Source: Acidobacteriota bacterium
GTDB lineage: Bacteria; Acidobacteriota; UBA6911; RPQK01; JAJDTT01
Assembly (NCBI GenBank): GCA_965209055.1
Contig: OZ242374.1
Coordinates: forward strand, 4,544,001 to 4,608,000
Direction of reading: 5' to 3'
DNA length: 64,000 bases
Shown here: positions 2,269-9,361 of the stretch, piece after piece
Numbering within the stretch: the stretch's first letter is position 1
Layout of the letters: each line of letters opens with the position of its first letter
Notes under the pieces: generated by a model
The model's database searches: none
Told to the model about the DNA's origin: nothing
What the model saw: the letters and a program-made list of their open reading frames with translations, nothing else
Position numbers and translations under genes: made by a program

Positions 2269-2522
2269 CTGCCTTGAATGACGTCCTGTGTAGTAGACGG
2301 ATTCTCGGCAGAAAAGGTTTCGTTTCGATGGAGAAGGAGCGGTGACTTTCTTGTCGCCGAGGAGCGGCGACTTTCCTGTCGCCGGAAGGGGATTATCGCG
2401 GACGGCAGTCCCCCTTTACGGCTTCCGCCCTCGACGCTTCCCGGACGCCAAATCGCGCAACAACAGAGAATACGGGCGGACAGGCACGTCCCCCCACCCG
2501 GTCACCGGGATTTCGCCCCTCT

Positions 2523-4036: not shown

Positions 4037-5746
4037 TCAATATTTCCGCTCCTCGGGCGCCCAACGGGTGATGGGCACCGGCTGGGTCTCCAACCTTGGA
4101 CCTTCCTCGGAGATGAGGGACAGTTGGTGATGCAGGAACCGCTCGTCGTCGCGCTCGGGAAAGTCGACCCTGGCCTGAGCCCCGCGTGACTCCTCGCGAG
4201 TCAAGGCGGCGCCGGCAATGCAGCGGGCCACGTCCAGCATGAAGTCCAGCTCCAGGGCCGCCACCAGGTCGGTGTTGAAGACCTTGCCCCGGTCGTCGAT
4301 GCGCACGTTGGCGAATCGCTCTCTCAACTCCGCCAGCTCCCTGGTGGTCTCCAGCAGGCTCTCCCGGGTGCGGAAGACCCCGCAACCCTTTTCCATGGCC
4401 GTCTGCATCTCGCCCCGCAGACCGCTGATGCGCTCGGTCCCGTCTTGCCGACGGAGGAATCCCTGCTCGATCCGCTGTTCCTCCTTGCGGGCCGCCGCCC
4501 GGACCCGGCTCGGATCGACGAGGCCGGTGGACTGGGCGTGGCGGGCAGCCGCCTCGCCGGCGAATCCGCCGAAGACCAGGCATTCGGTCAGGGAATTCGA
4601 CCCCAGACGATTGGCGCCGTTGATGGTGACACAGGCGACTTCGCCGGCCGCGTAGAGGCCTGGCAGGGGTGTGCTCCCATCGTTTCCGGTACTCACGCCT
4701 CCCATCATATAGTGCACCACCGGCCGGACCGGAATGGGTTGATAGACCGGGTCGATCCCCACGTACTTGGACGCCAGCTCCCGGACGAAGGGAAGCTTCT
4801 CGTCGATGACCTTTTCACCCAGATGGGTGAGATCGAGATGGACGTACTCGCCGTGTCGGCCTTCAAAGGTCCGGCCCGCCTGGCGCTCGGAGATGATGGC
4901 GCGAGAGAGGATGTCCCTGGGTCCCAGTTCCATCTTCCCGGGGATATAGCGCTCCAGGAACCTCTCGCCCTCGCTGTTGAAGAGATATCCTCCTTCGCCG
5001 CGCGAGGCTTCCGTGATCAGGATCCCGGTCCCGGGCAGGCCTGTGGGATGGTATTGGACGAACTCCATGTCCTTCAACGGCGCTCCCGCCCGGTAGGCCA
5101 TGGCCATCCCGTCGCCGGTCTTGATGTTGCCGTTGGTGGTGAAGGGGAAGATCCGGCCGCCTCCGCCGGTGCAGAGCATGACGGACCTGGCCAGGATAGG
5201 TTGGATCCGTCCGGTGGCCAGATCCAAGCCGGTCACCCCCACGCATTCGCCGTCGTCCACCAGCAGAGACGTGACGAACCACTCGTCGTACCGGCGGATC
5301 CTGGCAAAACGCAGCGAGTGCTGGAAGAGGCTGTGGAGCATGTGGAACCCGGTCTTGTCCGAGGCGAACACGGTCCGCTTGACGCTCATGCCCCCGAACG
5401 CCCGAACGCTGATGCGCCCGTCCCGGTCCCGGCTCCACGGACAGCCCCAGTGCTCCAGTTGAAGGACCTCTTTCGGAGCGGTGTCCACGAAAAGCTCCAC
5501 GGCGTCCTGGTCCGCCAGGTAGTCGCTTCCGCGAATCGTGTCGAAGCAATGCAGGTCGTGGCTGTCGTAATCGCGCAGCACGGCCGCCGTGCCGCCCTCG
5601 GCCGACACGGTATGGCTGCGCATGGGGTAGACCTTGGAGACCACGACGATGTCCAGGTCCGGCTGGATCTCGACCGCCGCCACCGCCGCCCGCAGCCCGG
5701 CCGCCCCGCCACCCACGATCAGAAGATCACACTTCAATGCGTCCAT
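4037..5746 (-). CDS. frdA: Fumarate reductase flavoprotein subunit
   Basis: GGGAAG FAD motif, [10 protein letters not shown] covalent-FAD His, [23 protein letters not shown]; start MDALKCD at 5746. Confidence 0.94.
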
Positions 5747-5955
5747 ATTCGGGCGCGAATCTTGCCACATTTCGCGGGCCGAATTCAAGGCGCGGATGAG
5801 GATGGGAGCGGCGGTTTCCTAACCGACGAACTCCTGTGTGACAACTTGGCGACGCAGACCGGGCGATTGGAAATCGCCCTTCCGTACAGTATCTTTCGAC
5901 CACGACCAGGTGAACTGGTTGGAACGAGAGGCGGCGTTGCGGATGGAAGGAAACG

Positions 5956-6378
5956 ATGAGTCTTCTCCATCTTATGGACATCTTCTTCCTCCTCTTCCAC
6001 TCCCTCTGGATCCTCCTGGTGATCCTGGGTTGGATCTGGTCCCGGACCCGCCGCCTGTGCCTGGCGGCGCTGGCGCTGACCACGATTTCGTGGTTCGGAT
6101 TCGGCTACTGGCGGGGGTGGGGCTACTGCATCTGCACCGACTGGCACTGGCAGGTGCGGCGGTCGCTGGGTGACCTCAACCTGCCCCACAACTACATCGG
6201 CTTTCTGATCAGGGAAGGGACCGGTCTGGAGGTCCCGGATCCGGTTCTGGAACCGGTCATCCTGGGCGCCTTCCTGGCGTCCGTAGCCGGGGGCGTTGGT
6301 CTCAGCCTGCGGGACCGCTCCCTGAAAGCCGGCACCGAAGACGGCGACAAGAACGTCGCCGCTTGTCTGTTTAAATAA
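5956..6378 (+). CDS. DUF2784-like membrane protein
   Basis: FH..W..L..LGW and GWGYCICTDWHW.VR..LG motifs; GGAAGG RBS. Confidence 0.7.
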   Translation: MSLLHLMDIFFLLFHSLWILLVILGWIWSRTRRLCLAALALTTISWFGFGYWRGWGYCICTDWHWQVRRSLGDLNLPHNYIGFLIREGTGLEVPDPVLEPVILGAFLASVAGGVGLSLRDRSLKAGTEDGDKNVAACLFK

Positions 6379-6382
6379 GTCT

Positions 6383-6410
6383 GCCCGGGCCGCTCATGAG
6401 CGGCCCGGGC
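6383..6410. repeat. Perfect 28-bp palindrome (terminator or REP-like)
   Basis: GCCCGGGCCGCTCATGAGCGGCCCGGGC is its own reverse complement and begins 4 nt after the stop at 6378. Confidence 0.75.
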
Positions 6411-6473
6411 GGCGGTGGCTGGACCGTGTCGCCGCTGACCGTTAGATCCGGATGTGGAGTAAGGTCGGCCACC

Positions 6474-6545
6474 GTCTTTCCCGATGTCCTGAATGGATAC
6501 GAGGGCATCAAGGCCCGAATGACAAGCACAGGAGACCGGAAAGAT
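6474..6545 (+). ncRNA. Putative bridge/seek RNA donor-binding loop in the IS110 left end
   Basis: Nested stems GTCTTTCC/GGAAAGAT, TCCTG/CAGGA and GGGC/GCCC enclose an internal loop. The loop holds ATGGATAC (identical to right end 7795-7802) and ACAAG (reverse complement of junction CTTGT). Confidence 0.6.
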
Positions 6546-7491
6546 GAAACAGCATACCGTAGGCATCGACATCTCGAAAGCGCACCTGGACGCCCACCGG
6601 CTGGCCGACGGCCGATCCGCCCGGTTCGACAATGACCCGGCCGGCTTCCGGGCGCTGATCGATTGGATCGGAACTCCGGTCGAGTGCGTCGCCTACGAGG
6701 CCACCGGCCCCTATCACCGGAACCTCGAGGAAGCGCTGTGGAAAGCGAAGCTGCCGCTGTCGAGAGTGAATCCCTGGCAGGCCCGGTGTTTTGCTCAGGC
6801 GACCGGGAGCCGCGCGAAGACCGACACCGTAGACGCCCGGATGCTGGCCCAGATGGGGGCCAGCCTGGATCCGCGCCGGACCCCGGCGCCGTCCAAGACG
6901 CAACGCCGGCTCCAGGAACTGCAGGGGTGCCGGGACGCGCTGATGCGCCAGCGCACGGCCGCGCTGAACCGCCGCGCCCATTTGCGCGATCCCCTGCCCA
7001 AGCGGCAGAACCAGACCCAGATCAACCTGTTCGAGCGCCAGGCGAAGGCCATTGACCGAAAAATGCAGCAACTGATCGCGGCCGATCCGGAGCGGGCGCG
7101 CAAGTTGGAGATCCTGACCTCCATTCCCGGGATCGCGGCCACCACCGCCGCGGGTCTACTGGCCGAGATGCCGGAGCTGGGCACCCTGAGCGGTAAGGCC
7201 GTCGCCAGTCTGGCCGGGTTGGCCGCCGTTCCTCGCGAGTCGGGGGCTTGGCAGGGACGGGCCTTCATCCGGGGCGGACGAGCGCGGGCGCGACGGCTCC
7301 TGTACATGCCGGCGGTGGCCGCCCTGCGCTGGAACCGCGACCTGGCCGAGGTCTATGGGAGACTGACCGGGCGTGGCAAGCCCGGCAAGGTGGCCCTGGT
7401 CGCCGTCATGCGCAAGCTCATCGTCCTAGCCAACACCCTGGTGAGTCAGGACCGCACCTGGTTGCCCGAAGCGCCCCGTGTGGTCTGCTGA
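6544..7491 (+). CDS. IS110 family transposase/recombinase
   Basis: GIDISK, YEATG, KTDTVDA (DEDD), SIPGIA, RESG catalytic Ser, GK..KVALVAVMRKL. Confidence 0.95.
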   Translation: MKQHTVGIDISKAHLDAHRLADGRSARFDNDPAGFRALIDWIGTPVECVAYEATGPYHRNLEEALWKAKLPLSRVNPWQARCFAQATGSRAKTDTVDARMLAQMGASLDPRRTPAPSKTQRRLQELQGCRDALMRQRTAALNRRAHLRDPLPKRQNQTQINLFERQAKAIDRKMQQLIAADPERARKLEILTSIPGIAATTAAGLLAEMPELGTLSGKAVASLAGLAAVPRESGAWQGRAFIRGGRARARRLLYMPAVAALRWNRDLAEVYGRLTGRGKPGKVALVAVMRKLIVLANTLVSQDRTWLPEAPRVVC

Positions 7492-7605
7492 AGCGACGGA
7501 GCGAGATGAGGAGGAAAGGGGGCGTGACGGGTCCCCCGAGGAATGATCTGTAGAACTTCCGGTCAGGCCTGGCCGGAAGCTTGCTTACGGCCTTGAAAGC
7601 TCTTC

Positions 7606-7755
7606 ACGCCCTGGGGAGCGTCGGGTCACCCGAAGGGCCGCAGCGAAGCGGAGGAGCCGTAGGCTTGACCCGAGGCTCCCCAGGGCGTACCCGCGCCCAG
7701 TGGACCGGACAGATCACGTGCCAACAGGAAACCGGACACCTCACTGACTAACGAC
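7606..7755. repeat. Long hairpin plus tandem CCGGACA-x-TCAC boxes resembling a transposon end or MITE remnant inside the IS110 3' region
   Basis: ~23-bp stem ACGCCCTGGGGAGCgTCGGGTCA...TGACCCGAgGCTCCCCAGGGCGT (7606-7688); CCGGACAGATCAC (7705) and CCGGACACCTCAC (7732). Confidence 0.5.
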
Positions 7756-7837
7756 CCGGGATGGAATCACCGATGAGAACCCACCCCTTGCAACATGGAT
7801 ACTCCCGAGTCCCCCACCGGAGAGCAGGAGGACCTCC

Positions 7838-9361
7838 ATGAATAGTCCGGGCGGCGGACTCGCAGCCGTGGACTGGGCGATCATCGTCCTCTACGCGCTG
7901 GGCACGGTCGCCTTGGGATATTTCTACGGGCGCCGTCAGAACAGCCTCAAGGAGTATTTCACCGGCGGCGGACGCATGAATTCCATCGTGGTGGGGTTCT
8001 CCATCTTCGCCACCGGCCTGAGCACCATCTCCTACCTGGCGGTCCCCGGCGAGGCCATCGGCAAGGGTCCGGGCGCCATGTTCAACAACTTCATGGTCTA
8101 TCCCATCCTCTACCTGGTCATCGGCTACGTCTTCCTGCCCCTCTACATGCGCCGGCGCGTCACCAGTGCCTACGAATACCTGGAAGAGACCCTGGGTTTG
8201 CGGATCCGGCTCCTGGGAGCCGTCATATTCATCTTTTCGCGTCTGATCTGGATGTCACTTCTCGTCTACCTGTCCGCCCGGGCCATGGTCGTCATGCTGG
8301 GCGTGGACGAATCGTGGGTGCCCGTCGTTATTCTGGTCACGGGATTCGTCGCCGTGCTCTACACGTCGGTGGGGGGGCTGAGAACCGTCGTCATTACGGA
8401 CACCCTCCAACTGACCCTCATGCTGGGGGGAGCCTGGCTCGTGATCGGGATCGTGACCTACCAACTGGGGGGCGTCACCTGGGTCCCAACCTCCTGGCAG
8501 CCTCATTGGGACCACCAGCCGTGGTTCAGCCTCGACCCGGCAGTCCGGGTCACCGTCTTCGGATCGGTGATTTACGTCGCCCTCGAGGGCATCTGTGGAG
8601 CCGCCTCCGACCAGACCCATGTCCAGAGATACATGGCCACGGGGAGCCTGAAGGCCGCCCGGCGCTCCATGATCGCCAATATTCTTGCGGGCCTCGCCGT
8701 CGTCCTCACTCTCTGGATCACCGGGCTCGCCCTTCTGGGGTACGTGCAGCAGGCGGCTCAGACGCTTCCTTCCCACATCAACGTCGGTCAGGGGGCCGAC
8801 AGTGTCTTTCCCTATTTCATTGCCTACGTGCTGCCTCCCGGCATCTCGGGTCTCGTGGTGTCGGCGATGTTCGCCGCCGGCATGTCCAGCGTCGACTCGG
8901 GCGTGAACTCCATTACCGCCGTGGTCAGCCGCGATTTCCTGCACCGTTTCGGGAGATTGCCGGCCAGCCGGCGCGCCCGGACCCGCCTGGCCAAGATCAT
9001 TGCGTTCTCCGTCGGGACGATCGTGGTGGTGGTCGGCTCCCTCATAGACAACGTGCCGGGAAACATCTGGGCGGTCGGCCAGAAGACGTCCGGGTTGCTC
9101 TCGACTCCCCTGTTCGGTCTCTTTTGTTTCGCCTTTTTCGTCCGCTTCGCGACCACTCTGGGAGTGGTCTTCGGCACCGTGACCGGCATCACGACGGCGG
9201 TCCTGGTGGCCTACTCCGGACCGATCTTCGGATTCGACCCGGAAACCGGATACGACCCGGTGAGTTTCATCTGGATCGGGCCATTCGCCTTGGCGGCGAA
9301 TCTGCTCGTGGGAATCCTGGTGAGCACCCTTCACCGGAAGCTCCGCCGGTCTGACGGTTGA
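7838..9361 (+). CDS. Sodium:solute symporter (SSS) family transporter
   Basis: EYFTGGG, STISYLAVPGE, SAYEYLE, YTSVGGLRTVVITD, DQ..VQRY, FAAGMSSVDSGVNS; many TM helices; GGAGG RBS. Confidence 0.92.
   Translation: MNSPGGGLAAVDWAIIVLYALGTVALGYFYGRRQNSLKEYFTGGGRMNSIVVGFSIFATGLSTISYLAVPGEAIGKGPGAMFNNFMVYPILYLVIGYVFLPLYMRRRVTSAYEYLEETLGLRIRLLGAVIFIFSRLIWMSLLVYLSARAMVVMLGVDESWVPVVILVTGFVAVLYTSVGGLRTVVITDTLQLTLMLGGAWLVIGIVTYQLGGVTWVPTSWQPHWDHQPWFSLDPAVRVTVFGSVIYVALEGICGAASDQTHVQRYMATGSLKAARRSMIANILAGLAVVLTLWITGLALLGYVQQAAQTLPSHINVGQGADSVFPYFIAYVLPPGISGLVVSAMFAAGMSSVDSGVNSITAVVSRDFLHRFGRLPASRRARTRLAKIIAFSVGTIVVVVGSLIDNVPGNIWAVGQKTSGLLSTPLFGLFCFAFFVRFATTLGVVFGTVTGITTAVLVAYSGPIFGFDPETGYDPVSFIWIGPFALAANLLVGILVSTLHRKLRRSDG

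Follow-up and report, generated by a model that had tools for sequence, protein, structure and literature searches.

A predicted two-loop bridge RNA in the left end of an IS110-group element inserted at a REP-like hairpin in an Acidobacteriota genome

The closest described counterpart of the locus considered here is IS621 of E. coli. In the IS621 scheme, as given in the available text of its structural description (Hiraizumi 2024, PMC11208158), a 9-nt left target guide is identical to positions 1-9 of the left flank, including the CT core, and the right target guide, 4 nt long, is complementary to positions 8-11, with two handshake bases after it. The donor-binding part follows a similar plan, with an 8-nt left donor guide placed before the right donor guide and, after it, two further handshake bases. 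A promoter is formed at the junction of the IS621 circle, according to the accessible part of a companion report (Durrant 2024, PMC11208160). The same source describes the IS1111 group as carrying the bridge RNA in the right end, together with long subterminal inverted repeats.

The window analyzed here is a 64,000-nt stretch of an Acidobacteriota genome (contig OZ242374.1); positions below refer to it, and the features discussed lie on its forward strand unless noted otherwise. The original prediction for this locus placed the left end of an IS110 element at 6453 and assigned to it a compact bridge RNA with a single, donor-binding loop. Had the bridge RNA really been limited to one loop, it would have implied a novel mode of target choice, but this is not the case here. 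We consider it very probable that 6364-7803 is an intact IS110-group element whose insertion site is a CT core within a REP-like hairpin, and that its left end specifies a canonical bridge RNA with two loops, about 165 nt in length. The boundaries, the fold, the identity or complementarity of the guides to flanks and ends, and the covariation of guides, stems, and position-7 handshake bases are observed directly. All defining features of an IS621-type element that can be examined in silico appear to be present; RNA production, recombinase binding, and recombination are predictions.

Element boundaries, insertion site, and recombinase

Three copies of the element are present in its own genome, and a sister genome (G170) retains the empty orthologous site. 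Base-by-base alignment shows that the copies are alike from 6343 to 7806, that is, from about 110 nt to the left of 6453. In G170, window segments 5600-6363 and 7802-8600 match adjacent DNA with a 2-base overlap, and the order at the empty site is hairpin, GCCGCCG, CT, and CCCGAGG, with a single CT. The inserted element has the CT core at both junctions (6362-6363 and 7802-7803). Because the empty site joins 6363 to 7802, the element corresponds to the CT-bounded segment 6364-7803, 1440 bp in length including the right-hand CT. Thus the true left end starts with TGTCTG at 6364, 89 nt upstream of 6453. The flanks abutting at CT in G170 exclude a left end at 6453, and the TGTGG found there is internal, belonging to the 3' strand of the target-binding loop described below.

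The insertion site is a REP-like hairpin of the form GGCGAC-N6-GTCGCC-G-CT-CC. Its left half (6343-6363) consists of GGCGAC (6343-6348), a loop (6349-6354), GTCGCC (6355-6360), G (6361), and the CT core (6362-6363); it is common to the three copies and runs straight into the right flank at the empty site of G170. The right half is CCCGA (7804-7808), and CTCC at 7802-7805 pairs with the right target guide. The uninterrupted target 11-mer GTCGCCGCTCC has 62 exact matches in the genome, compared with 14.7 expected; GGCGAC-N6 stands before 34 of these matches, and the genome holds 34 perfect unoccupied REP targets. A looser REP pattern is found in 260 copies.

Several observations concern the surroundings of the element and of its copies. 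About 4 kb from the element, on the minus strand, window positions 2336-2371 contain two tandem REP units, one of them with a perfect unoccupied GTCGCCGCTCC. Another repeat of about 80 nt, composed of two inverted REP-like units, lies at 5799-5884; dozens of copies with 85-95% identity occur in the own and sister genomes, a head-to-tail array with an 80-nt period is found at G000:C1:3248844-3249403, and the repeat folded as RNA has a z-score of -1.98. On each side of copy 2 of the element (G000:C1:218200-219900) lies one and the same ~50-nt block with two other REP-like hairpins, and this copy is thus situated inside a REP array. Copy 3 carries an IS5-family element of about 1.19 kb (L004:309-1503; G000:C1 ~1171727-1172915) inserted at TTAG in the target-binding loop, at the equivalent of 6442-6445. 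The inserted element has a 318-aa ORF (DDE_Tnp_1, 1.7e-28; DUF772, 3e-20), and its 27-nt inverted repeats show 85% complementarity; as it splits the target-binding loop, the bridge RNA of copy 3 is broken. A solo 3' remnant of a related element at G000:C1:1111403-1111595 retains the last part of the coding region together with a short right end; it terminates in the same ATGGATA-CT-CCC and adjoins a REP unit.

The gene at 6544-7491 encodes a 315-aa bridge recombinase with DEDD RuvC-like and Tnp domains, as indicated by Pfam matches to PF01548 (DEDD_Tnp_IS110, 8.5e-22) and PF02371 (Transposase_20, 7.8e-19). Its homologues in PDB are the transposases of ISCro4 (1.8e-37) and IS621 (2.6e-36). These matches confirm the initial assignment of the element to the IS110 family. 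The GID, EAT, TDxVDA, and ESG motifs of the protein, which we take to be the catalytic motifs, align with those of ISCro4.

Fold and guides of the left end and their covariation in relatives

The left end is 180 nt long (6364-6543). Folding of 6378-6550 yields a z-score of -5.46, with none of 200 shuffles as good, and a centroid structure with three domains; 6453-6546 folded alone gives a modest value (z -1.92, 6/200 shuffles as good). The 5' stem-loop (6379-6413) is present in both the minimum-energy and the centroid folds, and RNA-library contigs lie on 6385-6427. It is followed by a target-binding loop (6414-6473), seen in the centroid fold and upheld by stem covariation and by guides that follow the flanks in relatives. 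The stem of this loop pairs 6414-6425 with 6463-6473, leaving one A unpaired, and encloses the left target guide (6428-6436), the right target guide GGAG (6456-6459), and the handshake bases TA (6460-6461). The third domain, the donor-binding loop (6474-6545), is the structure recognized from the start. Its stems are present exactly as described then: GTCTTTCC (6474-6481) with GGAAAGAT (6538-6545), TCCTG (6487-6491) with CAGGA (6529-6533), and GGGC (6503-6506) with GCCC (6513-6516), the last forming the inner hairpin (6503-6516). The left donor guide (6493-6500) precedes this hairpin, and the right donor guide GACAAG (6521-6526) follows it, with CA (6527-6528) as handshake bases. The arrangement of a 5' stem-loop and two loops is found in the centroid, in a consensus fold of 14 sequences, and in the pair counts. 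An Rfam scan of 6200-8000 (E up to 1) gave no match to a bridge-RNA family.

The guides fit the DNA at the boundaries of the element. The left target guide GTCGCCGCT is identical to the left flank 6355-6363 at 9/9 positions, and the right target guide pairs with CTCC (7802-7805) over four contiguous bases in the window copy. For this copy a 7-nt right target guide was rejected, as only 5/7 positions fit its own flank and a chance 7-mer match in the right end reaches 6/7. The target-loop handshake bases complement donor positions 6-7 (TA, 7800-7801). In the donor loop, the left donor guide ATGGATAC is identical to the right-end terminus 7795-7802 at all eight positions, as had been noted originally, and the right donor guide is complementary to CTTGTC (6362-6367) at 6/6. 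One of the two donor-loop handshake bases fits: only C pairs, with target position 7 (G, 6361).

The donor-loop logic of the original prediction was right, as both donor guides fit the element ends by the IS621 scheme and covary with these ends in relatives. Fold and guide matches agree with a left end that encodes a bridge RNA, with 6474-6545 as its donor-binding loop. The identification of ACAAG (6522-6526) as the right donor guide holds for its position and complementarity, but not for its partner, assumed to be a junction with TGTGG at 6453; since the true left end is at 6364, the partner is the native CTTGTC at 6362-6367. The single-loop reading itself is refuted, because the left end extends further upstream and contains a target loop, an outcome that the prediction had named in advance as fatal to it.

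By analogy with IS621, a natural scenario for transposition may be proposed. The 315-aa DEDD/Ser recombinase would bind the bridge RNA, the target loop of which would pair with GTCGCCG-CT-CC of REP copies. The donor loop would pair with the circle junction, formed by the right-end terminus ATGGATA, the CT core, and the left-end start TGTC. Strand exchange at CT would then insert the element.

Relatives were collected in two ways. Nineteen loci come from three Acidobacteriota assemblies and encode proteins with 81-88% identity. A search of 301 genomes of the phylum gave matches at E up to 1e-40 in 12 genomes; seven further loci with full-length relatives (35-88% identity) were added, and one partial copy from the own genome was left out. 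Both flanks are available for 21 of the 25 loci examined. The flank tests exclude L038, with no recognizable left boundary within 420 nt, and L018, L023, and L024, with no right-end terminus within the DNA searched. L030 and L031, in which the ORF starts at ~1942, were excluded from the tables.

All four guides and both position-7 handshake bases covary with their DNA partners across relatives with 34-88% protein identity. At first pass, the left target guide matched its own flank at 7-9 of nine positions in 18 of the 21 loci. The other three (L033, L034, and L037) gave six, five, and five matches, respectively, and 7/9 after the left boundaries of L033 and L034 had been moved and the search window of L037 widened. 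In L033 and L034, a boundary with a GT core (locus ~709) was dropped, as it gave no match to the left target guide, and CT-TGTAT about 80 nt upstream was used instead; the target-guide matches of these two loci are not fully independent, because their left ends were reassigned after a first wrong boundary. The ends of single-copy distant relatives were placed using the donor guides.

Among the close relatives (81-88% protein identity), the donor loop is invariant and the left target guide occurs in three forms, GTCGCCGC, ACCGCCGC, and ACCGACGC, each adjoining a flank of the matching form. Among the distant lineages, the donor guides also change. The left donor guide is ATGGATAC in the window element and L032, ACGGATGC in L033 and L034, ACAGTTGC in L035 and L036, and ACAGTCGC in L037. 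Each of these four variants is found exactly once in about 900 nt searched downstream, where it is followed by T and preceded by a -35 box. The right donor guide also has four variants, and the variants of both donor guides fit their own element ends. Paired with the left-end start, the right-donor variants are GACAAG/CTTGTC, AACAAG/CTTGTA (5/6), TACAAG/CTTGTA (6/6), and CGCAAG/CTTGTA, the last including a G-T pair, as in IS621.

The right target guide fits at 7/7 positions in L014, L032, L034, L035, L036, and L037, and does not fit the own flank in L022. A cross-locus control with 10 lineages gave means of 7.5/9 (left target guide) and 6.2/7 (right target guide) for own flanks versus 5.37 and 4.64 for foreign ones. 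Own flanks were the unique best in eight lineages, the failures being L022 and L033. The handshake bases change as well. The window element and L032 have A at donor position 7 and T as the first handshake base of the target loop; L033-L037 have G and C at these places, respectively. In the donor loop, the first handshake base is C with a G at target position 7, and in L037 it is G with a C there. Position 6 pairs in some lineages only. The consensus fold of 14 sequences from 10 lineages recovers both loops, with 9 of 21 pairs changed on both sides. Pairing is retained in 93.7% of cells, compared with 84.9% in shuffles (0/500 as good) and 24-45% with the partner slid, these values referring to a consensus structure derived from the very sequences used to test covariation.

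A composite left end was noted in two sister genomes. In L030:1112-1945 and L031:1182-1945 (G088) and in L038 (G200), the left end is about 830 nt long and contains two bridge-RNA-like units in tandem. The left target guide of the proximal unit, CACGCCGCT, is identical to the flank at 9/9, and its right donor guide fits the start of the outer left end. The distal unit (~1340-1470) has a different target loop and donor guides ATGGAGAC and GACCAG, each one mismatch away from the real ends; it is followed, as judged by eye, by what appear to be the first ~50 codons of another IS110 recombinase. Presence at two sites in G088 indicates that the element with the composite left end moves as a unit.

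RNA evidence, right end, and ribosome-binding site

A promoter is predicted to form at the circular right-end/left-end junction, from the -35-like TTGCAA (7788-7793) of the right end, a 17-nt spacer, and the -10-like TTAAAT (6371-6376) of the left end, and only there. For the window element, 21 of 500 shuffles score as high. Judged by consensus match only, a sigma-70-like junction promoter with a 17-nt spacer is seen in all eight lineages. It matches the consensus at 8-9 of 12 positions, and between 1 and 21 of 500 shuffles score as well. From such a promoter, the RNA would start near 6380.

RNA-library contigs from two studies lie on 6385-6440 and 6456-6530, and thus the sequence in these libraries reaches upstream of 6453. 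In a size-fractionated study, the word depth is 416-1909 on bridge-RNA contigs versus about 55 for contigs running into the coding sequence. This cover is a hint only, because contigs do not reveal RNA ends, strand, or level, and DNA may occur in RNA libraries. By the same token, parts of 6300-7850 without contig cover are not evidence of silence, and the fact that no joints of the circle-junction type are reported in four RNA runs carries no weight either way. The loose contig ends at 6440 and 6456 switch to other target-loop sequences, for example GATTGGGAG in the region of the right target guide. These switches indicate that further target-loop variants of the element family coexist in the communities sampled.

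The right end (7492-7803) is 312 nt long and includes a hairpin module at ~7598-7695, the -35-like TTGCAA, the left-donor segment (7795-7801), and the CT core (7802-7803). The window element, L014, and L019 have a hairpin of about 78 nt within 7598-7695, which L022 and L026 cleanly lack. A further ~115 nt is found in the right end of other relatives, and 7479-7682 is missing from a right-end remnant in the own genome. The right end is built of dispensable pieces, with clean insertions and deletions among relatives. Pieces of the hairpin match elsewhere in the own genome with 81-87% identity (C1:2368165, 5448770, and 5095394), and at 7618-7693 there are RNA-library contigs that end loosely on either side, a pattern expected of a dispersed repeat. 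Two sub-threshold matches of the hairpin to the Rfam family mir-939 (29 and 24 bits; gathering score, 84) were taken as chance.

The possibility that a functional guide RNA, or half of a split one, is encoded in the right end, as in the IS1111 group, deserves consideration, as the right end contains a strong hairpin at 7598-7695 and exceeds the left end in length (312 against 180 nt), which is unusual for the IS110 group by the accessible account (Durrant 2024, PMC11208160). But this hairpin belongs to the module that is cleanly absent from two relatives, and the own-genome remnant is devoid of 7479-7682. A search of the 312 nt for the left target, left donor, and right donor guides gave at best 6/9, 6/8, and 5/6, respectively, versus full matches in the left end, which holds the complete guide set. 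On balance, nothing speaks in favor of a split RNA or of a right-end RNA, and we regard this explanation as extremely improbable. The original model, in which a left end starting at 6453 carries only a donor-binding loop and targeting comes from a right-end RNA, from an RNA in trans, or from a mechanism without a guide, shares the difficulty that the right end is variable and yields none of these three guides. It is understandable, given that the donor loop is real and that TGTGG at 6453 resembles the true start TGTCTG. It is contradicted by the joint between 6363 and 7802 in G170, by the presence of 6364-6452 in all three copies, by the target loop at 6414-6473 with its 9/9 left target guide covarying with flanks, and by the RNA-library contigs on 6385-6440, and it retains next to no probability.

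Yet another explanation would see in the left-end structure primarily a translational leader, in which the Shine-Dalgarno sequence and the start codon are concealed and the guide matches are secondary. The overlap noticed at the outset is indeed there in the sequence: AGGAG (6530-6534) and the A and T (6544-6545) of the ATG at 6544-6546 belong to the 3' strands of the stems that form the donor loop. When 30 nt of the coding sequence are included in the folding, the Shine-Dalgarno sequence is predicted to be paired with a probability of 0.79 in the window and 0.51-0.85 in seven of eight lineages, falling to 0.21 in L037; the pairing recurs through partly different stems. The start codon reaches 0.92 in the window, but 0.15-0.70 in other lineages, and is weakly paired in several of them (0.15-0.58). 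A leader as such leaves unexplained four guide segments that covary with flanks and ends, and a leader role is compatible with a bridge-RNA function rather than an alternative to it; as the main explanation it is very improbable. Pairing of the ribosome-binding site appears to be real and recurrent in these models and is compatible with a translational role. A tentative and rather unlikely extension of the bridge-RNA reading is that the donor-binding loop doubles as a translational operator. In that case, folding of the bridge RNA on the transcript from the junction promoter, or binding of the recombinase, would throttle recombinase synthesis, and the dosage of the recombinase would be coupled to that of the bridge RNA. 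In the available literature on bridge RNAs and ribosome-binding sites in IS110 elements, supplements aside, we found no treatment of occlusion, and the accessible text of PMC13626964 and of the preprint 10.1101/2025.10.25.684509 holds nothing relevant on the RBS, Shine-Dalgarno sequence, translation, or start codon.

Comparison with known systems

As a two-loop bridge-RNA element, the locus opens no new question. It provides a cleanly delimited and apparently intact bridge-recombinase element in an Acidobacteriota genome, with ends proven by an empty site, and possibly an extra orthologue for engineering. Since sibling elements share the donor loop but have different target loops, the element, with its empty-site ends and REP targets, is a natural illustration of modular retargeting. 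What remains of interest is that the donor loop recurrently occludes the ribosome-binding site and that two sister genomes have a composite left end.

The best homologue among solved proteins is the ISCro4 transposase (PDB 9t56; E 1.8e-37), with residues 3-297 of the query aligned to 8-310, a comparison that concerns the protein only. With the IS1111 group, as described in the text available to us (Durrant 2024, PMC11208160), the element shares a DEDD recombinase and RNA-guided target choice, but its RNA is placed in the left end. Judged on two points, the guides located in the left end and a right end variable by insertions and deletions, it is not a member of that group. ISPpu9 of Pseudomonas putida, by the accessible part of its description (PMC12288879), is likewise an IS110-family element inserted into REP sequences. 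An accessory module for a small RNA lies downstream of its transposase gene and is also found elsewhere in the genome, and the hairpin module in the right end of the window element is similar by description.

The closest parallel is with IS621, to the extent covered by the available texts (PMC11208160, PMC11208158). The differences are the length of the bridge RNA (177 nt in IS621 versus about 165 nt here), the guide sequences, the REP family, the Acidobacteriota host, and a right end (312 nt) that exceeds the left end (180 nt). The two elements are alike in a left-end RNA with a 5' stem-loop and two internal-loop hairpins, in a 9-nt left target guide, a 4-nt right target guide with two handshake bases, an 8-nt left donor guide, and a right donor guide with its handshake bases, and in the CT core, the predicted junction promoter, the REP target, and a homologous recombinase (E 2.6e-36).
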